Below are positions 4,546-30,934 of a stretch of DNA of 64,000 bases, one piece after another (positions within the stretch are counted from its first letter, which is position 1; each line of letters begins with the position of its first letter). The position numbers and the translations under genes were made by a program. This DNA is from Escherichia coli. GTDB lineage: Bacteria; Pseudomonadota; Gammaproteobacteria; Enterobacterales; Enterobacteriaceae. The stretch lies in NCBI RefSeq assembly GCF_030013595.1, contig NZ_CP122768.1. The stretch is one strand, 5' to 3'. The notes beneath the pieces were generated by a model. The model was not told where the DNA came from and did not search any database. It saw only the letters and a program-made list of their open reading frames with translations.

Positions 4546-5430
4546 TTACCCCCTGAAGCCTGGTGGGATCGCACTGTCCGGAAACGAGACGGTGTTAACC
4601 TGTCGAAGCAACGTCTCAGGCCGAACGCCTTTCGGCGCGAACAAGCCCTGGTATTCATGGGCAATGCTGTGTCTAATCACCTGCTCAGGGGTAAAACCCT
4701 GCTGGCGGAATTTTTCCAGCTCCCGTATCGCCCCGTTAGCGCCCTGCTCCGTTCGAATCGGTTTTCGCAATGCCTGCCTGAATTGAACCCACTCATGCCA
4801 GAGTGTTTCCGGCAACCACTCAGGCAGAGCAACTGACAACGGGTCGAATTTTTTAGTCGCTCGTTTTTGGTGAGGGAGATTTAGAGGGAGATCAGTATTT
4901 ATATCTTCCTCTTCCTCTTCCTCTTCCTCTTCCTCTTCCTCTGGTAACGCTTTTTGATCCGTTTGTGTAACGCTGGCAGCGTTACCTTTTCGTTTCAGTT
5001 CACGTATTTTTGTTACTCGCTCGTTTGTAACCGCCCGTTTTTTTGAGCTTTTTCCGTTATGACGTTCAAAGTTAGGTAGCGAAAGCCCACCGTCATTTTC
5101 GACCAGCCATCCAACCTGAATTAGCGCATCAGCAAAACCAGCCATAAAAGTGATGCGATCTATTGCACTTTTTGTAACGCTGCGAGCGTTACACTCTACG
5201 TTACCGTCTATCATTTGTTGATCCGCCCATACCCAGAAGCGAATGACTTTCCCTAATGCGGCATCTGGATCAATATTCAGAATCTCAGCAAGCCTGAATA
5301 TTTCCGGCTTATCCGGCGTAATAACCTCGAGCTTTATCCAGTTTGAAGCCATATTGTTTTCACCTTGTAACGCTGTGAGCGTTACATTTAACTGATACCG
5401 AACAAAACAGTCCGGCACGATTAATTTCAA
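4546..5430 (-). CDS. ydaU: Rac prophage replication-initiation-like protein with internal poly-Glu tract
   Basis: 294-aa ORF in YdaU position; contains 12 consecutive Glu encoded by a hexanucleotide repeat. Confidence 0.8.
   Translation of the reverse strand: MKLIVPDCFVRYQLNVTLTALQGENNMASNWIKLEVITPDKPEIFRLAEILNIDPDAALGKVIRFWVWADQQMIDGNVECNARSVTKSAIDRITFMAGFADALIQVGWLVENDGGLSLPNFERHNGKSSKKRAVTNERVTKIRELKRKGNAASVTQTDQKALPEEEEEEEEEEEEDINTDLPLNLPHQKRATKKFDPLSVALPEWLPETLWHEWVQFRQALRKPIRTEQGANGAIRELEKFRQQGFTPEQVIRHSIAHEYQGLFAPKGVRPETLLRQVNTVSFPDSAIPPGFRG
4905..4940. repeat. perfect hexanucleotide tandem repeat (CTTCCT)x6 on + strand, encoding poly-Glu in ydaU-like gene
   Basis: Read directly: cttcct repeated six times. 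Confidence 0.9.
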
Positions 5431-18555: not shown

Positions 18556-19749
18556 ATGATTACGCACAACTTCAATACCCTGGACTTACTCACCAGTCCT
18601 GTCTGGATCGTTTCGCCCTTTGAGGAACAGTTAATTTATGCCAATAGCGCGGCGCGACTGTTGATGCAAGACCTCACGTTTAGTCAGCTACGAACCGGTC
18701 CCTATTCCGTCTCCTCACAAAAAGAACTGCCAAAATACCTCTCCGATCTGCAAAACCAACACGATATTATCGAAATCCTCACCGTTCAACGTAAAGAAGA
18801 GGAAACAGCATTAAGCTGTCGGCTTGTTTTGCGAGAGCTTACAGAAGCAGAACCGGTGATTATTTTCGAAGGTATCGAAGCACCGGCAACGCTGGGTTTA
18901 AAAGCCAGTCGCTCGGCAAATTATCAGCGCAAAAAACAAGGTTTTTATGCGCGCTTTTTTCTGACTAACTCTGCACCAATGTTGTTGATTGACCCCTCAC
19001 GAGATGGCCAAATCGTCGATGCTAACCTCGCCGCGCTCAATTTCTATGGCTATAACCATGAAACGATGTGCCAGAAACATACCTGGGAAATAAATATGCT
19101 CGGGCGACGCGTCATGCCTATCATGCATGAAATTTCGCATTTACCCGGTGGCCATAAGCCTTTGAATTTTGTTCATAAACTGGCGGATGGTTCGACTCGT
19201 CATGTGCAGACCTATGCCGGTCCGATTGAAATTTATGGCGACAAGCTCATGTTATGTATTGTGCATGATATTACTGAGCAAAAACGGCTGGAGGAGCAGC
19301 TGGAACATGCTGCCCACCATGACGCGATGACCGGATTACTGAATCGGCGACAGTTTTATCACATTACCGAGCCAGGCCAAATGCAGCACCTCGCCATCGC
19401 TCAGGATTACAGCTTATTGCTCATCGACACAGATCGTTTTAAACACATTAACGATCTCTATGGGCATTCTAAAGGTGATGAGGTGTTATGCACCCTCGCC
19501 CGCACTCTCGAAAGTTGCGCTCGCAAAGGCGATTTGGTGTTTCGTTGGGGAGGCGAAGAGTTTGTCTTATTGCTACCAAGAACCCCACTGGATACCGCGC
19601 TTTCGCTGGCTGAAACTATCCGCGTAAGCGTGGCAAAAGTGAGTATTTCGGGCTTACCACGCTTTACCGTCAGCATTGGTGTGGCGCATCACGAAGGAAA
19701 TGAAAGCATCGATGAACTGTTTAAACGCGTTGATGATGCTTTGTACTGA
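18556..19749 (+). pseudogene. dgcM: diguanylate cyclase DgcM (YdaM), 3' end interrupted by IS10; translation stops at the first IS10 codon, last 13 codons displaced
   Basis: GGDEF protein ending ...ELFKRVDDALY then TGA inside the IS10 terminus; the expected tail RAKNDGRNRVLAA is encoded in frame on the far side of the IS. Confidence 0.85.
19737..19745. repeat. IS10 target-site duplication, left copy (TGCTTTGTA)
   Basis: Identical 9-mer directly flanks both IS10 ends. Confidence 0.9.
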
Positions 19750-21074
19750 TGAATCCCCTAATGATTTTGGTAAAAATCATTAAGTTAAGGTGGATACACA
19801 TCTTGTCATATGATCAAATGGTTTCGCGAAAAATCAATAATCAGACAACAAGATGTGCGAACTCGATATTTTACACGACTCTCTTTACCAATTCTGCCCC
19901 GAATTACACTTAAAACGACTCAACAGCTTAACGTTGGCTTGCCACGCATTACTTGACTGTAAAACTCTCACTCTTACCGAACTTGGCCGTAACCTGCCAA
20001 CCAAAGCGAGAACAAAACATAACATCAAACGAATCGACCGATTGTTAGGTAATCGTCACCTCCACAAAGAGCGACTCGCTGTATACCGTTGGCATGCTAG
20101 CTTTATCTGTTCGGGCAATACGATGCCCATTGTACTTGTTGACTGGTCTGATATTCGTGAGCAAAAACGACTTATGGTATTGCGAGCTTCAGTCGCACTA
20201 CACGGTCGTTCTGTTACTCTTTATGAGAAAGCGTTCCCGCTTTCAGAGCAATGTTCAAAGAAAGCTCATGACCAATTTCTAGCCGACCTTGCGAGCATTC
20301 TACCGAGTAACACCACACCGCTCATTGTCAGTGATGCTGGCTTTAAAGTGCCATGGTATAAATCCGTTGAGAAGCTGGGTTGGTACTGGTTAAGTCGAGT
20401 AAGAGGAAAAGTACAATATGCAGACCTAGGAGCGGAAAACTGGAAACCTATCAGCAACTTACATGATATGTCATCTAGTCACTCAAAGACTTTAGGCTAT
20501 AAGAGGCTGACTAAAAGCAATCCAATCTCATGCCAAATTCTATTGTATAAATCTCGCTCTAAAGGCCGAAAAAATCAGCGCTCGACACGGACTCATTGTC
20601 ACCACCCGTCACCTAAAATCTACTCAGCGTCGGCAAAGGAGCCATGGGTTCTAGCAACTAACTTACCTGTTGAAATTCGAACACCCAAACAACTTGTTAA
20701 TATCTATTCGAAGCGAATGCAGATTGAAGAAACCTTCCGAGACTTGAAAAGTCCTGCCTACGGACTAGGCCTACGCCATAGCCGAACGAGCAGCTCAGAG
20801 CGTTTTGATATCATGCTGCTAATCGCCCTGATGCTTCAACTAACATGTTGGCTTGCGGGCGTTCATGCTCAGAAACAAGGTTGGGACAAGCACTTCCAGG
20901 CTAACACAGTCAGAAATCGAAACGTACTCTCAACAGTTCGCTTAGGCATGGAAGTTTTGCGGCATTCTGGCTACACAATAACAAGGGAAGACTTACTCGT
21001 GGCTGCAACCCTACTAGCTCAAAATTTATTCACACATGGTTACGCTTTGGGGAAATTATGAGGGGATCTCTCAG
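19746..21074 (+). mobile_element. IS10 insertion sequence, complete (1329 bp), outside end towards dgcM
   Basis: Begins CTGATGAATCCCCTAATGATTTTGGTAAAAATCATTAAG and ends ...GGGGAAATTATGAGGGGATCTCTCAG; length and ends match remembered IS10. Confidence 0.95.
19853..21061 (+). CDS. IS10 transposase
   Basis: 402-aa ORF MCELDILHDSLYQFCPELHLKRLNSL...HGYALGKL matching remembered IS10 transposase. Confidence 0.95.
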   Translation: MCELDILHDSLYQFCPELHLKRLNSLTLACHALLDCKTLTLTELGRNLPTKARTKHNIKRIDRLLGNRHLHKERLAVYRWHASFICSGNTMPIVLVDWSDIREQKRLMVLRASVALHGRSVTLYEKAFPLSEQCSKKAHDQFLADLASILPSNTTPLIVSDAGFKVPWYKSVEKLGWYWLSRVRGKVQYADLGAENWKPISNLHDMSSSHSKTLGYKRLTKSNPISCQILLYKSRSKGRKNQRSTRTHCHHPSPKIYSASAKEPWVLATNLPVEIRTPKQLVNIYSKRMQIEETFRDLKSPAYGLGLRHSRTSSSERFDIMLLIALMLQLTCWLAGVHAQKQGWDKHFQANTVRNRNVLSTVRLGMEVLRHSGYTITREDLLVAATLLAQNLFTHGYALGKL

Positions 21075-21083
21075 TGCTTTGTA
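21075..21083. repeat. IS10 target-site duplication, right copy (TGCTTTGTA)
   Basis: Identical to the 9-mer at 19737..19745. Confidence 0.9.
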
Positions 21084-21146: not shown

Positions 21147-21710
21147 TCAACGACTGCGCTTAGCGTGGCGCTCCCAGTTTTCTTGCTTTGCCTGTGCCGT
21201 TTTACGTAGTGCGACGTAACACGCCCCGCTGCCGCCATGATGCGGTAGCGCGGTACAATATGCCTGGACATCATCAAATTCGGTCAACCAGCGCGCCACA
21301 TAGCTGCGGACAATATTGGCATGCGATTTATCTTCCCGCCCTTTACCATGAATAATCAGCACATTACGCAAACCATCCGCCAGGGCTTGTTGAATGAAAC
21401 TGAACACCATTTTGCGGCACTCTTCCACCGGCTGGCGCAAAAGATTCAGGCTCGCCTGTTGCGGATATTTACCACTGCGCAGCTTATCCAGCACCCCGTG
21501 TTGCAACCCTTCCCGCCGAAACTCCAGCGGCTGACTTAGCGGGATGATGTCGAGAAATCCGGTGGTGAGGAAATTATCAAGTTGCAGCGTGTCGATACGC
21601 TGCGGCGCACGTTGGTTACGCGTTGGATGCCAGTGGACATCTGTAGCACGTTTCAGCGGCTGGACATCTTCCATGGCGTCAAGAAACAGCGATTTGTCGT
21701 CAAGGTTCAT
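21147..21710 (-). CDS. smrA: Smr-domain DNA endonuclease SmrA (YdaL)
   Basis: 187-aa ORF in conserved position next to dgcM. Confidence 0.9.
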   Translation of the reverse strand: MNLDDKSLFLDAMEDVQPLKRATDVHWHPTRNQRAPQRIDTLQLDNFLTTGFLDIIPLSQPLEFRREGLQHGVLDKLRSGKYPQQASLNLLRQPVEECRKMVFSFIQQALADGLRNVLIIHGKGREDKSHANIVRSYVARWLTEFDDVQAYCTALPHHGGSGACYVALRKTAQAKQENWERHAKRSR

Positions 21711-21904
21711 GTAACCTCCTATGCACCTTCACACGTCGTGATTCAGACGGGTTAATTGTTCATACTTACTGCATCGTTCCCTTCACAGATTGAAACAATA
21801 CTCTACTTCATACCTGTGAGTATCTGCGCAGGCGGGGCATTTTATACTAGCCTGTTAGCAGTATCGAACAGTTTAGCCCGAGTTTAATTCAGCACAGGCT
21901 CCGA

Positions 21905-23419
21905 TCAGGATGATTTATTCATAGCAGGAACCAACAAAAATGCGATAAATAACAGACCACTGATTAGCAGAAAGGTATCCGAAAATGCCATAGTTTGCGC
22001 CTCCCTCAGCATCAATTGACTCAATAATTTGGTTGAAGCCAGTATTTCCGATGTCTGGTCACTTCCACTGCGATTAAAAAACAAAGCACTTCTGGAAATG
22101 AAGTCATTCACCGTATGGGGAACAGAAACCATTTTTTCACCCATTCTCGAAAAATGAAAATTAGTTCGATTATTGAGAATAGAGCCACACAGGGCAATAC
22201 CAATCGCGCCCCCAAGATTACGTGTTAAATTAAATACACCAGAGGCTAACTTCAGCCGTTCTTTTGGAATTCCCCCCAGCGTTAATGTTACGATGGGGGC
22301 CATCGCAAACTGCTGCGAAATCCCTCTAATTGCCTGTGGAAACAGTAACTCCTGCCATCCCCATTCGTGGGTTATAGGGGTAAAAAGATACATTGAAAAC
22401 ACAAATCCACCCAGCCCCGCCATCAACAGCCATCGCAGATTTATTTTTTTACTTAACCAGAAGTAAAAGGGAACAGAAAATAACTGGAAAATACCTGTTG
22501 TGCAAACGGCAAAACCTATCTCTTCGGCATTTAATCCGCGAACCTGCCCCAAAAACACAGGTATTAAATATACAGTAGAGAATATCCCAACCCCTCCAGA
22601 AAAAGAAAAAAAGCATCCCAGCGTGAAATTTTTATCCTTAAAAGCATGAAGATCCATTATCGGATTGGATATTGTAAGTGTACGCGCAGCAAATAAAATA
22701 AAACTCACCAATGCCAGAACTGATGTCAGCAAAATAGTATTATCATCCAGCCATCCCCAGCGCGCTCCTTCTTCAAGGGTATATTCCAGACATCCCAGTG
22801 TCATGGCCAACAGGATAATACTCGGATAATCAGCAACTTTCAGTAAAGAGAGATCAGGTTTATCAAAATTAACCAGAAAAGGAATACTCAAAACTAAATA
22901 TATGCCAGGTAATATATTGATATAAAATAGCCATCGCCAGTCGAGGTTATCAGTGATCCAGCCCCCCAGAGTTGGCCCTAGCGTCGGTGACAGTGAGGCC
23001 AGCGCACTGACTACCGCAGCAGCCACCCCCAACTCTTTACCCTGGTAATAAATAAACGCCGTCGTGAAAACTAAAGGGATCATGGATGCGCCAGCCGCTC
23101 CCTGTAAAGCACGAAACAAAATCATGATCTGAATATTCCATGCAAGTCCACACGCGATACTCATTAAAGTAAATATTCCCGCGGATAGAGTAAAAAGCCA
23201 ACGAGTGGAAAATACCCGTGACAGCCACCCAGAGAGCGGAATAACAATAATCTCAGCAATTAAATAGCTGGTCTGAAGCCAGGCCATTTCGTCTTTACCT
23301 GCGGACAGACCACCACCTATTTCATTTAGGGATGACGATACAATTTGAATATCAAGCTGAGCAATAAATAATCCCATACACATACTGGCGAAAGCAATAT
23401 GTTTACGCATAGACATCAT
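21905..23419 (-). CDS. MFS drug-efflux transporter, EmrB/QacA-like (14-TMS type)
   Basis: 504-aa highly hydrophobic ORF with typical MFS features; start overlaps the stop of the upstream fusion-protein gene. Confidence 0.8.
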   Translation of the reverse strand: MMSMRKHIAFASMCMGLFIAQLDIQIVSSSLNEIGGGLSAGKDEMAWLQTSYLIAEIIVIPLSGWLSRVFSTRWLFTLSAGIFTLMSIACGLAWNIQIMILFRALQGAAGASMIPLVFTTAFIYYQGKELGVAAAVVSALASLSPTLGPTLGGWITDNLDWRWLFYINILPGIYLVLSIPFLVNFDKPDLSLLKVADYPSIILLAMTLGCLEYTLEEGARWGWLDDNTILLTSVLALVSFILFAARTLTISNPIMDLHAFKDKNFTLGCFFSFSGGVGIFSTVYLIPVFLGQVRGLNAEEIGFAVCTTGIFQLFSVPFYFWLSKKINLRWLLMAGLGGFVFSMYLFTPITHEWGWQELLFPQAIRGISQQFAMAPIVTLTLGGIPKERLKLASGVFNLTRNLGGAIGIALCGSILNNRTNFHFSRMGEKMVSVPHTVNDFISRSALFFNRSGSDQTSEILASTKLLSQLMLREAQTMAFSDTFLLISGLLFIAFLLVPAMNKSS

Positions 23420-24447
23420 CTCTCATCAACACTGACGGTGACGGACAGTCCCGGGCGAAGAAGTTGCTTTAATTCCTTTGCGTCGTCAAATGCAATCCGT
23501 ACCGGGACTCGCTGAACAATTTTGGTGAAATTGCCAGTGGCATTTTCTATCGGAATCAAGCTGAAACTGGCTCCTGTCGCTGGGGAAAGGCTTTCAATGT
23601 GACCGTGAAACACTTCCCCTTTGAGAATATCAGCACGGATCTCAGCCTTCATTCCTGGCTTCATTCCCGCTATTTGGTTTTCTTTATAATTTGCATCAAC
23701 CCACAACTCACTGACTGGTACAAGTGAAACTAACGATGTGCCACCTTCCACCCAACTGCCTGTATGGGCGCTGCGGTTTGCGACAATGCCATCAATCGGC
23801 GCACGAACAAGGGTATATTCCAGATCCAGTAGTGCCTGAGTCAAAGCGGCCTGAACTTCTTCGATACTCGCACGTACGTTTTCTTCCTGAGCAGATAAAA
23901 CTGCCAGCCGTTGCTTCTCCACCAGGAAATCGTTCGCGGCTTTGCGCTCCTTTGCTGCGACCTGCTGGTAGTCAAACCTGGCATTATCAATAATTTGTTG
24001 CGATATTGCCGCTGATTGTGCGAGTTTTTCATAACGTTCAGTATCTCGCAGGCGCTTTTGCTCCTCATGTTTTACTGCCTGCCATGTTTCACTGGCACTT
24101 TGAATTATCGACTGCTGCATCGCAATAGTGGCTTGAATGCTTTCGAGATTGGCTTTGCTACTTTTTATTTTTGCCTCAAGCCTGGCGACATTTGCACGAT
24201 AATCCCGATCATCGAGACGCAGGATAATATCGCCTTTTTTTACGCTCTGATTATCGCGCACCTCTATAGCAGAAATATAACCAGAAACTTTACTTGCCAC
24301 CGTGGTGATATTACCACCAATGTAAGCATCATCCGTCGTCTGTATAAATCTTCCTGTGCTTACCCACCAGATAAAAAAGACAACGCCAGCTAAAATAATA
24401 CCGATCGCTACCACCCCAATAAGCTGTTTTTTAGAAATTATCATCAC
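23416..24447 (-). CDS. membrane fusion protein, EmrA/HlyD family
   Basis: 343-aa ORF with N-terminal TM anchor, coiled-coil region and C-terminal beta domain. Confidence 0.8.
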   Translation of the reverse strand: MMIISKKQLIGVVAIGIILAGVVFFIWWVSTGRFIQTTDDAYIGGNITTVASKVSGYISAIEVRDNQSVKKGDIILRLDDRDYRANVARLEAKIKSSKANLESIQATIAMQQSIIQSASETWQAVKHEEQKRLRDTERYEKLAQSAAISQQIIDNARFDYQQVAAKERKAANDFLVEKQRLAVLSAQEENVRASIEEVQAALTQALLDLEYTLVRAPIDGIVANRSAHTGSWVEGGTSLVSLVPVSELWVDANYKENQIAGMKPGMKAEIRADILKGEVFHGHIESLSPATGASFSLIPIENATGNFTKIVQRVPVRIAFDDAKELKQLLRPGLSVTVSVDER

Positions 24448-24540
24448 TCTTTACACCGTATATATCCGGAAACTTGCATTCGTCATATTTAAAATTTAAC
24501 ATGGCTTATTTGATGATTTCTGACAAAATACCTACTGTAA

Positions 24541-25356
24541 ATGACAATCACACTGCAACCCAAAGCATCACCAGGGCATCACATTATCGGACTGGATTCG
24601 GAACATCTGAATGGAGGTACAGTTCCCTGGCATAAACATCTCTATGCCCAGTTGCTTTACCCGGCTGAAGGAGTCGTTCGTGTATGGGCTGGAGAAAGCG
24701 TCTGGCTAGTGCATGCCAGCAGCGCGCTTTGGCTGCCCCCACAAATGCCGCATAAGTTTGTTGCGACAGGCAACGTACTTTTAAAAACCGTACTGGTTTC
24801 AGAAGCGGAAAGTGAAACGCTGGGAAAAGTTTGCTTCATGACGGGTATTTCACCCCTGTTAAGGGAATTACTAATTGCAATTAACCAACTTCCACCGTCG
24901 CAAAGTACCACAGATAAACAACAGTTACGTTTTTCAGCCCTCGAGACACTGATACTTCAGGAAATAAAAATGGGGGTGAAAATGTCACTTGAACTCCCTT
25001 GGCCAAATGATGAGCGGCTACAGCAGCTTTGTGAGAATTTGCTAAACAACCAAGGGTATCTGCCAACATTGGATAATCTAGCGGATAAAATTAACGTCAG
25101 TAGCCGTACACTCATGCGCTTATTTGTTAAAGAGACGGGATTAACATTTCGCCACTGGGTTCAGCAAATGCACGTTATTTCTGCAGTGACGCTTCTTGAT
25201 GATGGATATTCGTTGACCAAAATTGCCCATCGTCTGGGCTATGCCTCAGCTGAATCGTTCGGCAATATGTTTAAGCGTCGAACGGGCTACTCGCCCGGTA
25301 AATTTACTCGTCGATTAACGATGCATGATTATGCAATCACAAGACAAATGATTTAA
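24541..25356 (+). CDS. AraC-family transcriptional regulator (cupin-like N-terminus, HTH C-terminus)
   Basis: 271-aa ORF, divergent from the efflux genes; C-terminal AraC-type HTH region. Confidence 0.75.
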   Translation: MTITLQPKASPGHHIIGLDSEHLNGGTVPWHKHLYAQLLYPAEGVVRVWAGESVWLVHASSALWLPPQMPHKFVATGNVLLKTVLVSEAESETLGKVCFMTGISPLLRELLIAINQLPPSQSTTDKQQLRFSALETLILQEIKMGVKMSLELPWPNDERLQQLCENLLNNQGYLPTLDNLADKINVSSRTLMRLFVKETGLTFRHWVQQMHVISAVTLLDDGYSLTKIAHRLGYASAESFGNMFKRRTGYSPGKFTRRLTMHDYAITRQMI

Positions 25357-25426
25357 CTTATATTTTCGTGAAATCTGTCACTGAAGAAAATTGGCAACGG
25401 ATGGGTAAAACCGTTATAACACTGTC

Positions 25427-25522
25427 ACCGGTCACCAGGACCCCAGGCCGGATTTAAGACGAGGATGCACTGCTGTGTGTACTGTAGAGTCTGGCGGATG
25501 TAGACAGACTCTATTTTTTTAT
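25427..25522 (+). ncRNA. mcaS: McaS (IsrA) small RNA, probable
   Basis: 3' two-thirds matches remembered McaS including the terminator hairpin and U-run; the 5' end is approximate and looks different from my memory of K-12. Confidence 0.6.
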
Positions 25523-25528
25523 GCAGTT

Positions 25529-26437
25529 TTAACTTTGCAGATAGCCGCATTCTCGCCGAAATTGCGTGATTAATGACGCGGTCAGTGGTGTCTGGCGACT
25601 ATCACGTCGCTGAATCAAATAATAGGTCGCTTTCGGTAAAATTTCGCTAACCGGCAACATCACCAGCCCCTGTCCGTGCAAGGGATCGCAGCCCATTTCT
25701 TCAGGTAGTATGCTGAGAAAATCGCTTTTTGCCACCAGACTGATACAGGCTGAGAACGTCTCGCAGACTACACCGACCTGTGGCGTTTGCGCCTGATCGT
25801 CAAGCAATTCACTCAACTGTTTGTAGTAGCTGCCGTGTGGCGTCGGCATTGTCCAGCTGTAGTCCAGTAACTGTTTGATCGAACGGGCACCAATGGCGGG
25901 ATGTCCCGGGCGGCAAAAGATCGCGAATTGCTTTTCCAGTAATTTCTCAAAAGTAAATTCGTGGTCGTAGGGTCCCTGATAATAGGTATTGATGGTGAAA
26001 TCCAGTTCCCCCTGGCGCAATTCATTAATCATCGATACCAGTTGCCCTTCCATAATGCGTACTTTTACCTGCGGATGCTGCTGATGAAAACGAGATATGA
26101 CAGCTGGCATCAGACTGCGGGAAATACTGGCCCCCATGCCGATATTAATTTGCCCTGCCAGTTGCCCTTGTCGTTGGCGAATATCCTCTTGCGCTGCGCG
26201 CAGCTCTTCAAGAATAAGACTGGCGTGCTGATAAAAACTTTCGCCGGCATCAGTTAACGTCACGCCTTTACTACGGCGAAAAAAGAGTTGTGCCGCCAAC
26301 CCTTCTTCCAGCTCCTGAATAGATTTACTCAGTGCCGGTTGCGACATATTCAACATTCGGCTCGCTCCGCGAATGCTGCCCTGACGAGCCACTTCAACAA
26401 AAGCCCGAATTTGATGAATTTTTACCTGAAAAGCCAT
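25529..26437 (-). CDS. abgR: LysR-family regulator AbgR
   Basis: 302-aa ORF with N-terminal LysR HTH, divergent from abgA. Confidence 0.9.
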   Translation of the reverse strand: MAFQVKIHQIRAFVEVARQGSIRGASRMLNMSQPALSKSIQELEEGLAAQLFFRRSKGVTLTDAGESFYQHASLILEELRAAQEDIRQRQGQLAGQINIGMGASISRSLMPAVISRFHQQHPQVKVRIMEGQLVSMINELRQGELDFTINTYYQGPYDHEFTFEKLLEKQFAIFCRPGHPAIGARSIKQLLDYSWTMPTPHGSYYKQLSELLDDQAQTPQVGVVCETFSACISLVAKSDFLSILPEEMGCDPLHGQGLVMLPVSEILPKATYYLIQRRDSRQTPLTASLITQFRRECGYLQS

Positions 26438-26612
26438 GACGCCACCGATAACCGTTATTTATCAGACCAAAGAAACTGGCATCTACTTTAATGCAGATGA
26501 TTGTGTCAGGGTAATTTATGAACGGTTAAAACTGTGAAAAATCAGTTAGTGATAAGTAAAAACTATCGCTACGTGAACCGGGTCACACTTTTTACTGATG
26601 ACGGGAAAGGTT

Positions 26613-27923
26613 ATGGAGTCTTTGAATCAATTTATTAATTCGCTTGCCCCAAAATTATCGCACTGGCGACGTGATTTTCACCACTATGCAGAGTCTGGCT
26701 GGGTGGAATTCCGCACTGCCACCCTTGTTGCGGAAGAATTGCACCAGCTCGGTTATTCACTGGCGCTGGGCCGCGAAGTAGTTAATGAAAGTAGCCGGAT
26801 GGGATTACCTGATGAATTCACTCTACAACGCGAATTCGAGCGCGCTCGTCAACAGGGTGCGCTAGAACAATGGATTGCGGCTTTTGAAGGCGGTTTCACT
26901 GGTATCGTCGCCACCCTGGATACCGGTCGCCCCGGTCCGGTGATGGCTTTCCGTGTCGATATGGACGCGCTGGATCTCAGTGAAGAGCAGGATGTCAGCC
27001 ATCGCCCCTACCGCGACGGTTTTGCGTCATGTAACGCCGGAATGATGCATGCCTGTGGTCATGATGGACATACCACCATTGGGCTTGGGCTGGCGCATAC
27101 CCTTAAACAGTTCGAGTCCGGACTACATGGCGTCATCAAACTGATTTTTCAACCTGCAGAAGAAGGTACGCGTGGCGCGCGGGCGATGGTCGATGCAGGT
27201 GTAGTGGATGATGTTGATTATTTTACTGCCGTGCACATTGGCACTGGCGTACCTGCGGGCACCGTGGTGTGCGGCAGTGATAATTTTATGGCAACCACCA
27301 AATTTGACGCGCACTTCACCGGGACCGCCGCTCACGCAGGCGCAAAACCAGAAGACGGTCACAATGCCTTGTTGGCGGCAGCACAAGCAACTCTTGCACT
27401 GCATGCAATCGCCCCGCACAGCGAAGGCGCTTCCAGAGTAAACGTGGGCGTTATGCAGGCAGGAAGCGGTCGTAATGTTGTTCCCGCCTCAGCGTTGCTG
27501 AAAGTGGAAACACGCGGGGCCAGCGACGTCATTAATCAATATGTTTTTGACCGTGCACAACAAGCGATTCAGGGCGCAGCAACCATGTATGGTGTCGGCG
27601 TTGAAACTCGTCTGATGGGTGCAGCTACCGCCAGTTCTCCTTCGCCGCAATGGGTCGCATGGTTGCAAAGTCAGGCAGCTCAGGTCGCGGGGGTCAATCA
27701 GGCCATTGAACGTGTTGAAGCGCCTGCGGGTTCCGAAGATGCCACATTAATGATGGCCCGCGTGCAGCAACATCAAGGGCAAGCCTCCTATATGGTGTTT
27801 GGCACACAGCTGGCGGCAGGTCATCACAACGAAAAATTCGATTTTGACGAGCAGGTTCTCGCTATTGCCGTCGAAACGCTGGCGCGCACCGCGCTCAATT
27901 TTCCCTGGACGCGAGGTATCTGA
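26613..27923 (+). CDS. abgA: p-aminobenzoyl-glutamate hydrolase subunit A (M20 peptidase)
   Basis: 436 aa from MESLNQF..; M20 metal-binding motifs. Confidence 0.9.
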   Translation: MESLNQFINSLAPKLSHWRRDFHHYAESGWVEFRTATLVAEELHQLGYSLALGREVVNESSRMGLPDEFTLQREFERARQQGALEQWIAAFEGGFTGIVATLDTGRPGPVMAFRVDMDALDLSEEQDVSHRPYRDGFASCNAGMMHACGHDGHTTIGLGLAHTLKQFESGLHGVIKLIFQPAEEGTRGARAMVDAGVVDDVDYFTAVHIGTGVPAGTVVCGSDNFMATTKFDAHFTGTAAHAGAKPEDGHNALLAAAQATLALHAIAPHSEGASRVNVGVMQAGSGRNVVPASALLKVETRGASDVINQYVFDRAQQAIQGAATMYGVGVETRLMGAATASSPSPQWVAWLQSQAAQVAGVNQAIERVEAPAGSEDATLMMARVQQHQGQASYMVFGTQLAAGHHNEKFDFDEQVLAIAVETLARTALNFPWTRGI

Positions 27924-29368
27924 TGCAGGAAATCTATCGTTTTATCGACGATGCGATTGAAGCCGATCGCCAACGTTATACCGATATTGCCGATCAAATC
28001 TGGGATCATCCAGAAACACGTTTTGAAGAGTTCTGGTCAGCGGAGCATCTGGCTTCGGCGCTGGAGTCTGCAGGCTTCACCGTTACCCGCAACGTAGGCA
28101 ATATCCCAAATGCCTTTATTGCTTCGTTTGGTCAAGGCAAACCGGTTATCGCCCTGCTGGGGGAATATGACGCCCTGGCAGGTTTAAGTCAGCAAGCAGG
28201 TTGCGCGCAACCTACATCCGCGACGCCCGGTGAAAATGGTCACGGTTGCGGACACAATTTGCTGGGAACCGCCGCCTTTGCCGCAGCAATAGCCGTCAAG
28301 AAATGGCTGGAACAATATGGGCAAGGCGGCACGGTGCGCTTTTATGGTTGTCCTGGCGAAGAAGGCGGCTCGGGTAAAACGTTCATGGTCCGCGAGGGGG
28401 TATTTGATGATGTGGATGCGGCACTCACCTGGCACCCGGAAGCCTTTGCCGGTATGTTCAATACCCGCACGCTGGCAAACATTCAGGCATCATGGCGCTT
28501 TAAAGGGATCGCAGCACATGCCGCGAACTCCCCTCATTTGGGACGCAGCGCCCTTGATGCCGTAACGTTGATGACCACTGGCACCAACTTCCTCAACGAA
28601 CATATTATTGAAAAAGCGCGCGTACACTATGCCATCATAGATAGCGGCGGGATCTCGCCCAACGTGGTCCAGGCGCAGGCAGAAGTGCTTTATCTTATCC
28701 GCGCCCCCGAAATGACCGATGTGCAGCATATTTATGATCGGGTCGCCAAAATCGCCGAAGGTGCGGCATTGATGACCGAAACCACGGTTGAATGCCGCTT
28801 CGACAAAGCCTGTTCCAGTTATCTCCCGAATCGCACCTTAGAAAATGCCATGTACCAGGCCCTATCCCATTTTGGTACTCCGGAATGGAACTGCGAAGAA
28901 CTGGCTTTTGCGAAACAAATTCAGGCTACGCTCACCCCCAACGATCGGCAAAACAGTCTGAATAATATCGCTGCAACCGGTGGCGAAAACGGCAAGGCTT
29001 TTGCACTACGTCATCGTGAAACGGTACTGGCGAATGAAGTCGCTCCATATGCCGCCACCGATAACGTGCTTGCGGCATCGACTGATGTCGGCGACGTCAG
29101 TTGGAAACTGCCTGTTGCCCAGTGTTTCAGCCCCTGCTTTGCCGTCGGTACCCCGCTACATACGTGGCAACTGGTTAGCCAGGGGCGAACATCTATTGCT
29201 CATAAAGGAATGCTGCTGGCGGCGAAAACTATGGCAGCAACCACACTTAATCTCTTCATTGATTCAGGGCTATTGCAAGAATGCCAACAAGAGCATCAGC
29301 AAGTTACGGACACGCAACCGTATCACTGCCCTATCCCGAAAAACGTGACACCGTCACCTTTAAAATAA
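27923..29368 (+). CDS. abgB: p-aminobenzoyl-glutamate hydrolase subunit B (M20 peptidase)
   Basis: 481-aa ORF, translationally coupled to abgA. Confidence 0.9.
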   Translation: MQEIYRFIDDAIEADRQRYTDIADQIWDHPETRFEEFWSAEHLASALESAGFTVTRNVGNIPNAFIASFGQGKPVIALLGEYDALAGLSQQAGCAQPTSATPGENGHGCGHNLLGTAAFAAAIAVKKWLEQYGQGGTVRFYGCPGEEGGSGKTFMVREGVFDDVDAALTWHPEAFAGMFNTRTLANIQASWRFKGIAAHAANSPHLGRSALDAVTLMTTGTNFLNEHIIEKARVHYAIIDSGGISPNVVQAQAEVLYLIRAPEMTDVQHIYDRVAKIAEGAALMTETTVECRFDKACSSYLPNRTLENAMYQALSHFGTPEWNCEELAFAKQIQATLTPNDRQNSLNNIAATGGENGKAFALRHRETVLANEVAPYAATDNVLAASTDVGDVSWKLPVAQCFSPCFAVGTPLHTWQLVSQGRTSIAHKGMLLAAKTMAATTLNLFIDSGLLQECQQEHQQVTDTQPYHCPIPKNVTPSPLK

Positions 29369-29407
29369 CAACAACAACAACGCAAACACAACAAACGAGG
29401 AATGCCC

Positions 29408-30934
29408 ATGAGTATGTCATCCATACCGTCGTCCTCCCAATCCGGGAAGCTCTATGGCTGGGTCGAAAGAATTGGTAACAAGGTTCCCCATCCTTTTTTG
29501 CTCTTTATCTATTTGATTATCGTACTCATGGTGACGACGGCAATTTTGTCGGCCTTTGGCGTCAGTGCGAAAAACCCGACCGATGGTACGCCGGTGGTCG
29601 TGAAAAACCTGCTCAGTGTGGAAGGATTACACTGGTTTTTACCCAATGTTATTAAAAACTTTAGCGGTTTTGCTCCACTTGGTGCGATCCTGGCGCTGGT
29701 TTTAGGTGCCGGTCTGGCGGAGCGCGTCGGCTTACTGCCAGCGTTGATGGTTAAAATGGCATCGCATGTGAATGCCCGCTACGCCAGTTATATGGTGCTG
29801 TTTATTGCTTTTTTCAGCCACATTTCTTCCGATGCGGCGTTAGTGATCATGCCACCGATGGGTGCGCTAATTTTTCTGGCGGTGGGCAGGCATCCAGTTG
29901 CAGGTTTACTTGCCGCCATTGCAGGCGTAGGTTGCGGCTTTACGGCTAATTTACTGATTGTCACAACCGACGTGTTGCTGTCGGGGATCAGCACGGAAGC
30001 GGCGGCTGCGTTCAATCCGCAAATGCACGTCAGTGTAATTGATAACTGGTATTTTATGGCCAGCTCCGTAGTCGTACTGACGATTGTTGGCGGCCTGATA
30101 ACCGACAAAATCATCGAGCCACGGTTAGGTCAATGGCAGGGAAACAGCGATGAGAAACTGCAGACATTGACCGAAAGTCAGCGTTTTGGTTTACGCATAG
30201 CAGGTGTCGTATCGCTACTTTTTATTGCTGCGATTGCGCTGATGGTGATCCCGGAAAACGGGATATTGCGCGATCCAATTAATCACACCGTGATGCCATC
30301 ACCCTTTATTAAAGGTATCGTGCCACTGATCATTCTTTTTTTCTTTGTGGTCTCGCTGGCTTATGGCATCGCTACCCGCACAATTCGACATCAGGCGGAT
30401 TTACCGCATTTAATGATTGAACCGATGAAAGAGATGGCGGGATTTATCGTGATGGTTTTTCCCCTCGCCCAGTTTGTCGCCATGTTTAACTGGAGCAACA
30501 TGGGGAAATTCATCGCCGTGGGGCTGACCGATATACTGGAAAGTTCAGGGCTTAGCGGCATCCCGGCGTTTGTCGGTCTGGCGTTGCTTTCCTCTTTCTT
30601 ATGCATGTTTATCGCCAGCGGTTCCGCAATCTGGTCGATTCTGGCCCCCATTTTCGTACCGATGTTTATGCTACTTGGCTTTCACCCGGCATTTGCGCAA
30701 ATCCTCTTTCGTATTGCCGACTCATCCGTATTGCCTTTAGCGCCGGTATCTCCTTTTGTTCCACTGTTTCTTGGATTCCTGCAACGTTACAAACCAGACG
30801 CGAAACTGGGTACTTACTATTCGTTAGTTTTGCCCTATCCACTTATCTTTTTGGTGGTATGGCTGCTGATGTTGCTGGCGTGGTATCTTGTTGGTCTGCC
30901 GATAGGTCCGGGGATTTACCCACGTTTGTCTTAA
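29408..30934 (+). CDS. abgT: p-aminobenzoyl-glutamate transporter AbgT
   Basis: About 508-aa polytopic membrane protein; start chosen among three close Met codons. Confidence 0.9.

Follow-up and report, generated by a model that had tools for sequence, protein, structure and literature searches.

Genes between smrA and mcaS

The window analysed here, a stretch of 64,000 nucleotides of Escherichia coli DNA (contig NZ_CP122768.1), carries between smrA and mcaS a three-gene accessory efflux module, which consists of an MFS permease, a translationally coupled adaptor and a divergent AraC regulator. The features of the locus, in window coordinates, are the following.

19746..21074, complete IS10, on the far side of smrA from the island
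21147..21710, minus strand, smrA, left flank gene outside the island (NF033154, 253 bits)
21711..21904, minus strand, spacer from the MFS stop to the smrA start (alignment of smrA upstream regions, scan)
21721..25320, the accessory island itself, 3,600 bp (K-12 locus compared with the window by BLAST)
21905..23419, minus strand, intact MFS permease of the DHA2 family, EmrB-type, 14-TMS class, 504 aa (TIGR00711, Pfam MFS_1)
23416..24447, minus strand, EmrA/HlyD-type adaptor, a membrane-fusion protein (TIGR01730, HlyD_D23, HlyD_3, Biotin_lipoyl_2)
24448..24540, divergent control region of 93 bp between the pump operon and the AraC gene (ortholog alignment and consensus scan)
24541..25356, plus strand, AraC-family regulator, 271 aa (PF02311, PF07883, PF12833)
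25321..25522, plus strand, right flank with the mcaS promoter and mcaS (Rfam RF00115, four-way alignment)
25427..25522, plus strand, mcaS, the McaS sRNA (Rfam RF00115, 106.3 bits)
25529..26437, minus strand, abgR, beyond mcaS

All three reading frames of the module are intact in the window. The stop codon of the adaptor (TGA, 23416-23418) and the start codon of the MFS gene (ATG, 23417-23419) overlap as ATGA (23416-23419), and the regulator lies on the plus strand, divergent from the pump pair on the minus strand. The GC content of the island is 44.2%, against 49-51% in the flanks and 53.7% in smrA. The initial annotation had described an EmrA/HlyD-type adaptor and an MFS transporter coupled by a 4-nt overlap, a divergent AraC regulator, a somewhat AT-rich composition, and smrA and McaS as neighbours; the open reading frames, the profile and Pfam matches and the base composition bear it out on each of these points. 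As to the neighbours themselves, SmrA is a DNA endonuclease and McaS an sRNA of biofilm and motility.

In K-12 the order is dgcM-smrA-abgR with no pump genes between smrA and abgR, and alignment to K-12 shows none of the three genes, as had been expected. Positions 21721-25320 of the window, an accessory island close in size to the 3.7 kb first proposed, stand against 111 bp in K-12. The boundaries found by BLAST join K-12 4701-4889 with window 21532-21720 and K-12 5001-5300 with window 25321-25620, and the similarity of the 111 bp of K-12 to the island is not above that of shuffled sequence.

The features of an island moved by an integrase or an IS (repeats, an integrase or transposase, a tRNA target) were not found here. 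No mobility gene lies inside the island, and its boundaries carry no repeat beyond a 5-bp ATGCA microhomology. The initial statement that flanking repeats and mobility genes are lacking is thus right for the island itself; it overlooked the IS10 that lies 650 bp to the left of the interval. This element has its own 9-bp target duplication inside dgcM and is missing from a strain whose island is identical; it is specific to the strain and has no connection with the island.

Protein families and possible function

The permease matches the DHA2/EmrB subfamily profile TIGR00711 over its full length (residues 9-496 on profile positions 3-480 of 485) with 404.6 bits, above the curated cut-off of 230.2, which places it in the DHA2 family. 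It is colinear end to end with orthologues of 505 aa from Citrobacter, Kluyvera and Hafnia at 82-83% identity. DHA2 proteins carry an arginine motif in TM4, like LFRALQGAAGAS, and motif C (G-P-x-x-G-G) in TM5. The antiporter motifs are present in the permease translation as ...ILFRALQGAAGASM... and ...SPTLGPTLGGWIT..., in columns that are invariant across the aligned orthologues. The closest solved structure is that of EmrB (cryo-EM, 8ZAL, E 5.6e-56). A crude hydropathy scan gave 12 peaks for the permease and 14, with overlaps, for EmrB; colinearity of the permease with EmrB over residues 12-497, seen also in the alignment with the 8ZAL chain, implies the same predicted topology for both proteins.

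The adaptor has 342 aa from the ATG at 24444 (the PGAP start) or 343 aa from the GTG at 24447. Its score with TIGR01730 (132.6, cut-off 94.9) puts it in the wider HlyD/MFP superfamily, and it includes HlyD, biotin-lipoyl and barrel-sandwich domains. The match to TIGR00998 (EmrA/EmrK), though full length (residues 7-340 on 2-334 of 334), reaches 267.7 bits and misses the cut-off of 390.8. The closest solved structure is EmrA (cryo-EM, 8ZAR, E 1.4e-43). A single hydrophobic helix at residues 8-26 is the N-terminal anchor in the inner membrane, and such an anchored adaptor, coupled in one operon with its permease, is the arrangement of a tripartite MFS-MFP-TolC system. No outer-membrane factor gene is located in the island or adjoining it.

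The permease is 28% identical to EmrB and 30% to EmrY, and the adaptor is 31% identical to both EmrA and EmrK. The dedicated models for EmrB (NF000391, 219 bits against 925) and EmrA (NF011715, 208 against 563) are not reached, and, judged from these scores, the pump pair is not an EmrAB orthologue. The first label of the pair, "EmrAB-like", therefore holds at the level of the family, while a closer relationship is contradicted by the identities of 28-31% and by the adaptor score under the EmrA/EmrK subfamily cut-off.

The regulator exceeds the cut-offs of PF12833 (HTH_18, 78 bits), PF00165 (41), PF02311 (AraC_binding, 34.9) and PF07883 (Cupin_2, 29.7), and fits the AraC/XylS proteins with a cupin, that is, an N-terminal ligand-binding domain followed by a C-terminal double HTH. 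None of the NCBIfam equivalog models is reached by it, the best being AraC itself (62.5 against 208). In the control region, alignment reveals a block at about 24491-24517 conserved with the Citrobacter/Kluyvera modules, and the consensus scan gives a promoter-like site for the pump operon on the minus strand at 24541..24513, a match that alone is no proof of function.

Like EmrAB-TolC, the module has the adaptor gene first, a coupled permease of the DHA2 class (predicted 14 TMS), one N-terminal helix and no outer-membrane gene. Apart from the low identity, it differs from EmrAB in having an adaptor about 45 residues shorter, a divergent AraC/cupin regulator instead of the upstream MarR-type MprA (mprA-emrA-emrB), and an accessory rather than core status. 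EmrKY has the same architecture and belongs to the same family; it is a close paralogue of EmrAB (62% and 49%), whereas the pair described here stands at the same distance from each of them. EvgAS, not a local AraC as in this module, controls EmrKY. The modules of Citrobacter freundii, Kluyvera, Hafnia, Pluralibacter and Salmonella salamae have the same three genes in the same arrangement with a partly conserved control region, and occupy at least two different chromosomal contexts in these other Enterobacteriaceae, neither of them adjoining smrA. The module behaves as a unit and is an ordinary member of a well-known pump family.

By analogy with EmrAB-TolC, the module most likely works as an exporter dependent on TolC, with induction by way of its AraC regulator. 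As a DHA2 proton antiporter with its adaptor, the pump would carry some hydrophobic or amphipathic compound out of the cell, from either the cytoplasm or the inner membrane. Because the module has no outer-membrane gene of its own, we propose that the adaptor would form a hexameric tube joining one MFS permease to the chromosomal TolC channel. When it binds an inducer, which is probably the substrate itself or a compound related to it, the AraC protein would activate the pump promoter in the 93-bp control region.

It is possible, although we give it the smaller chance, that the module is functional without being a drug pump, and exports something made by the cell or derived from the host, such as a metabolite, a fatty acid, a bile component or a plant phenolic, maybe without TolC. 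DHA2/MFP pumps that have a local regulator sensing the substrate are often specialised for particular natural compounds, as FarAB is for fatty acids; the cupin domain of the AraC protein implies a specific small-molecule signal, and the neighbours of the module vary between genera and offer no drug-resistance context. However, the sequence does not discriminate between substrates, and this proposal refines the explanation of a TolC-dependent exporter rather than offering an alternative anatomy.

The pair would be a third EmrAB-type pump in E. coli, one that has escaped the K-12-based efflux literature through its absence from that strain. Searches by gene names, accessions and concepts found no paper on the module, and for the orthologous modules of other genera they found annotation only. 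If a drug, bile component or host compound is exported, the pump could be one reason why lineages differ in tolerance. Otherwise it would be a routine accessory transporter, and a clean worked example of an insertion that replaces the promoter of a neighbouring gene.

Probable gain and spread of the island

Was the module gained at this place or lost from K-12? In C. rodentium, C. koseri and S. enterica ogt adjoins smrA without a pump. The 111 bp of K-12 are homologous to the smrA upstream DNA of these species, whereas the corresponding DNA of the window and of E69, a divergent Escherichia genome, is not. K-12 thus retains the ancestral smrA upstream DNA, and deletion alone cannot turn the island form into that of K-12. 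The other end of the island is marked by the regulator gene. AraC orthologues of other genera have 262 aa, are 78-79% identical and do not have the tail MHDYAITRQMI; in E. coli the DNA in common with K-12 (from 25321 on) codes for exactly this 11-aa tail, and the last 12 codons (25321-25356) lie in DNA common to island-free genomes. The AraC reading frame therefore reads across the junction.

These comparisons favour gain rather than loss; the polarity is taken from a single junction and from three genera as outgroups, a set without E. albertii or E. fergusonii. We consider it probable that a three-gene efflux module was inserted between the mcaS promoter and smrA in an Escherichia lineage and later spread by recombination. 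One contig, P0191, whose SmrA is 89% identical, had been tried as an additional outgroup and was rejected when it proved to come from E. coli of the ordinary, K-12-like kind.

Between E69 and the window the flanks are 78-92% identical and the island 95-99%; between EC958 and the window the values are 95-96% for smrA and 99-100% for the island. Since lineages differ less in the island than in its flanks, the pattern points to its spread among lineages by homologous recombination, and by this measure the island is younger than its flanks. The right flank is diverged by 12% between haplotypes, which is unusually high and suggests a history more complex than a single clean event. Synonymous sites are saturated in comparison with the orthologous modules of other genera, so that these are not recent donors. 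The spacer 3' of the MFS gene is not similar to its counterpart in these genera.

It is unlikely that the three genes are ancestral at this place and that a single deletion removed them from K-12 and the remaining strains without the island. The stretch in common with K-12 does start inside the AraC frame, 36 bp before its stop, and so resembles a gene remnant; moreover, the island occupies the same site in E69 and is present in B2 strains such as EC958 and ATCC 25922, and B2 is usually placed near the base of the species. However, the supposed remnant is exactly the tail that has no counterpart in AraC orthologues, and K-12 has, upstream of smrA, about 85 bp that are conserved in Citrobacter and Salmonella and missing from every island copy examined. 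With the orthologues lacking the tail and the 111 bp of K-12 being ancestral, the 36 bp were dropped as a trace of deletion. The pump-free ogt-smrA order of the outgroup genera and the low divergence of the island in both comparisons above also speak against an ancestral position. The initial annotation had left it equally open that the genes were ancestral and deleted in K-12; its accessory island is the favoured reading, and the equal odds are not supported by the outgroup smrA upstream DNA, the AraC junction and the age of the island.

The pump DNA, whose insertion and later spread we thus prefer, was detected in 1,455 of 5,426 complete E. coli genomes (about 27%). The arrangement of the window, with abgR intact, was found in 313 genomes, and the B2-type arrangement, in which the abg operon is deleted, in 1,141. 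Among the carriers are ST131 (EC958) and other extraintestinal pathogenic lineages. A single-protein scan with one genome per species gave matches only in Kluyvera intermedia, five (Para)Burkholderia paralogues and "E. coli" E69; the other named Escherichia species gave no match, which is weak evidence of absence because the method needs exact octapeptides. Plasmid carriage was considered and rejected: full matches were confined to mislabelled chromosomes and to replicons of very large size, all others being distant paralogues.

Permease annotation and the genes next to the island

In each of the eleven RefSeq E. coli records examined, PGAP flags the permease as "frameshifted". The flagged coding sequence ends at window position 21964. 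Truncated proteins of Shigella flexneri with the C-terminus ...AFSVPFC, RefSeq WP_162471458.1 among them, use exactly this alternative-frame stop. A truncated reference protein is hence the best explanation of the flag, which looks like an annotation artefact. The identical 504-aa permease is annotated as intact in GenBank (for example, EED0144827.1), and the 504-aa frame is kept in each of the eight gap-free E. coli copies. For the permease, dN/dS lies at 0.03-0.05 in comparisons with other genera and at 0.07-0.30 inside Escherichia, and the frame is, as judged from these ratios, under purifying selection.

The module is dispensable, and it is often broken by real lesions: a 1-bp deletion (Ecol_448), a 194-bp deletion, an IS1 insertion, an allele with a premature stop, a deletion of about 1.85 kb (ATCC 25922, LF82), the truncated allele of Shigella flexneri and, in E69, a split gene. 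That the permease is a pseudogene and the module a decaying, functionless relic, as the RefSeq flag and the lesions in several lineages could suggest, is very unlikely, given that the frames in the window and in the eight gap-free copies are intact and colinear with the 505-aa orthologues to the last residue, that dN/dS is well under 1, that the same protein stands as intact in GenBank and that the flag is best accounted for by the Shigella stop. As a consequence of the RefSeq pseudogene label, protein-based pan-genome and resistance surveys would miss the permease.

The smrA gene is 97-98% identical to that of K-12, and the spacer at 21711..21904 replaces its ancestral upstream region. A consensus scan showed no evident intrinsic terminator between the MFS stop and smrA, and the RNA fold of the spacer is no more stable than shuffles (z = -0.98). 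The same kind of scan, as the only source, gave one promoter-like site in the spacer (21867..21839). With the ancestral upstream region removed, smrA in island strains would be transcribed from island DNA or by read-through of the pump operon. It may even be supposed, although we find this doubtful, that the island is not merely a passenger pump but places smrA under the AraC-controlled operon or a new island promoter, and that it travels as a single old and divergent haplotype block with a distinct mcaS allele and, in B2, with the loss of abg. In that case a quarter of E. coli, including major ExPEC lineages, would differ from K-12 in the wiring of SmrA and McaS.

The identity of the right flank and mcaS to K-12 is 87-88%, against 97-99% elsewhere. 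The CRP-like site of the mcaS promoter does not vary among the haplotypes compared. The mcaS allele here is linked to the island, and its differences from K-12 are mostly in the loop of the 5' hairpin.

Gene content, limits and proposed function of the module

All three genes that the initial annotation had placed between smrA and McaS were found there intact, with the flanking genes where it had put them. An EmrA/HlyD-type adaptor and an MFS permease (together, the pump) overlap by 4 nt as predicted, the permease ATG and the adaptor TGA sharing ATGA, and the AraC-family regulator lies opposite to them.

Features of the smrA-mcaS region (positions in the window)
19746-21074, complete IS10, 1,329 bp, with 9-bp target duplication at 19737-19745 and 21075-21083
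19791-19860, minus strand, RNA-OUT antisense RNA of IS10 (Rfam match)
21147-21710, minus strand, smrA, left flank
21721-25320, island proper, 3,600 bp, from alignment with K-12
21905-23419, minus strand, MFS permease, 504 aa, intact
23416-24447, minus strand, membrane-fusion protein (adaptor), 342/343 aa, RefSeq start at ATG 24444, intact
93-bp gap between the adaptor and AraC genes, control region
24541-25356, plus strand, AraC-family regulator, 271 aa, intact, divergent from the pump genes
25427-25522, plus strand, McaS (Rfam match, 106 bits), right flank
25529-26437, minus strand, abgR, beyond mcaS

In K-12 the genes dgcM, smrA and abgR are consecutive, and the predicted absence of the island from this strain was borne out by alignment. 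Since the K-12 match stops at 21720 and resumes at 25321, the island occupies 21721-25320; in its place K-12 carries 111 bp without resemblance to any island sequence. The impression of AT-richness was also correct (GC 44.2% against 49-51% in the flanks). The claim that flanking repeats and mobility genes are missing holds for the island itself, where we detected no mobility gene and no end repeats at the boundaries except a 5-bp ATGCA, but not for the DNA beyond smrA, where IS10 lies.

In profile searches the permease matched TIGR00711 (DHA2/EmrB subfamily) over its full length with 404.6 bits (cut-off 230.2). The adaptor matched HlyD/RND-adaptor profiles and missed the EmrA/EmrK subfamily cut-off (267.7 vs 390.8), and the regulator has cupin/AraC ligand-binding and HTH_18 domains. 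Among solved structures, the nearest are those of EmrB and EmrA from the EmrAB-TolC complex (8ZAL/8ZAR). However, identity of the pump proteins to EmrB, EmrY, EmrA and EmrK is only 28-31%, and the likeness to EmrAB/EmrKY is one of family-level architecture. A literature search found no publication on the module, which is an uncharacterised, new member of a well-known pump family.

By analogy with this family, the adaptor would be anchored by its single N-terminal helix and would link the permease to TolC, proposed as partner because the module has no outer-membrane gene. The proton gradient would then drive export of a hydrophobic compound. An inducer bound through the cupin domain would allow the regulator probably to activate the pump promoter in the control region, which contains a block conserved with the Citrobacter and Kluyvera modules and a promoter-like site.

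Distribution and integrity of the pump

In a panel of 5,426 complete E. coli genomes, the comparison proposed initially, pump DNA was present in 1,455 and absent from K-12; at least 80% of the pump was found in 1,316. The island stands beside an intact abgR, as in the window, in 313 genomes and beside an abg deletion in 1,141. This deletion takes abgA and abgB entirely and the greater part of both abgR and abgT (window equivalent 25743-30788). Carriers include EC958 (ST131), APEC O2-211, ATCC 25922, LF82 and MP1, which belong to phylogroup B2, while K-12, strain B, IAI1 and 55989, of phylogroups A and B1, are island-free.

RefSeq/PGAP flags the permease as frameshifted in all 11 records examined, one of them with an island 100% identical to that of the window. 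This reading is contradicted by the alignment, where the window ORF is colinear with 505-aa orthologues to the last residue, by retention of the 504-aa frame in 8/8 gap-free copies, and by an identical 504-aa protein annotated as intact in GenBank. The flagged CDS ends at window position 21964, the alternative-frame stop of truncated Shigella flexneri proteins (...AFSVPFC), RefSeq WP_162471458.1 among them. The flag probably stems from a truncated reference protein and is probably a systematic artefact affecting most of the ~1,300 carrier genomes.

Real lesions also occur, and the pump has several times been inactivated independently: Ecol_448 has a 1-bp deletion, ATCC 25922 and LF82 have lost about 1.85 kb internally, and we also saw a 194-bp deletion that fuses the adaptor and permease genes, an IS1 insertion, and a premature-stop allele common in sequencing-run assemblies (1,555 members among public assemblies). 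About 83% of 60 evenly spaced carriers were free of large lesions, and dN/dS was 0.03-0.05 in comparisons with other genera and 0.07-0.30 among Escherichia sequences. The pump genes have thus been under purifying selection and yet are dispensable.

Origin of the island and its haplotypes

The initial annotation regarded the island as accessory, which stands, and held that it could equally be ancestral and deleted in K-12. The 36 bp common to K-12 and the 3′ end of the AraC gene could be read as the remnant of such a deleted gene, but three observations reverse this reading. First, the 111 bp of K-12 show clear homology to the DNA upstream of smrA in Citrobacter rodentium, C. koseri and Salmonella enterica; apart from the ribosome-binding site, the corresponding window DNA is unrelated to it. 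K-12 thus retains ancestral sequence missing from the island form and cannot be derived from it by deletion alone. Second, AraC orthologues of other genera have 262 aa, and the E. coli protein is longer by an 11-residue tail, MHDYAITRQMI, whose codons coincide exactly with DNA that K-12 also has; the reading frame simply crosses the junction and ends at the next stop codon of the flank that was already there. Third, between the window and E69, a divergent genome, the flanks are 78-92% identical and the island mostly 95-99%; between the window and EC958 the values are 95-96% for smrA and 99-100% for the island. By these comparisons the island is younger than its surroundings. The sequence evidence therefore favours acquisition over loss in K-12, and the simplest account is a single insertion replacing 111 bp, followed by spread of the island haplotype between lineages by homologous recombination.

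The AraC/adaptor-MFS unit is also present in Citrobacter, Kluyvera, Hafnia, Pluralibacter and some Salmonella (permease 82-83% identical), in at least two chromosomal contexts, none beside smrA. These copies are not recent donors, because synonymous sites between them and E. coli are saturated. The matches on plasmids were mislabelled chromosomes or distant paralogues.

The history of the locus is not entirely clean. The right flank (mcaS promoter spacer and McaS 5′ hairpin) differs by ~12% between haplotypes. The abg deletion has identical end points in B2 strains and E69, and what it leaves of abgR shares only about 78-80% identity with the functional gene, which makes the abg-deleted form an old or introgressed haplotype. 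The window, one B2 strain and E69 share an mcaS allele with the 5′ hairpin loop UCACCAGGACCCCAG, vs CGCAGAGGAGACAAU in K-12; its stem and GGA motif are preserved, and the CRP-like block of the mcaS promoter (25357-25426) is identical in all four. Near its 3′ end the window mcaS turns K-12-like, which suggests a recombination breakpoint within the gene, and the window copy therefore resembles a product of recombination between the two haplotypes. E69 (CP089930.1, labelled 'Escherichia coli strain E69', 4.44 Mb) has its island at this site too, and the permease gene in it is split. The flanking core genes of E69 share only 78-92% identity with the window and with K-12-like sequence, so this genome probably falls outside E. 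coli proper.

The smrA neighbourhood

In C. rodentium, C. koseri and S. enterica, ogt adjoins smrA directly, without the pump, abg operon or mcaS, so all three are additions to this site in Escherichia, and the ogt/smrA intergenic site is a repeatedly used one. In the island-free E. coli E41 an IS1 has entered the same intergenic site, between smrA and mcaS, a further hint that insertions are tolerated here.

Island DNA comes as close as 10 bp to the start codon of smrA, whose ancestral upstream region has therefore been lost. The spacer from the permease stop to smrA has no evident terminator, folds no better than shuffled sequence and contains one promoter-like site. For these reasons smrA may be transcribed by read-through of the pump operon or may use a new promoter.

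The IS10/dgcM junction of the window occurs in none of the 5,426 complete genomes, including the strain with the 100% identical island. The element sits 43 nt before the dgcM end, where it takes the place of the final 14 codons of this diguanylate cyclase gene.
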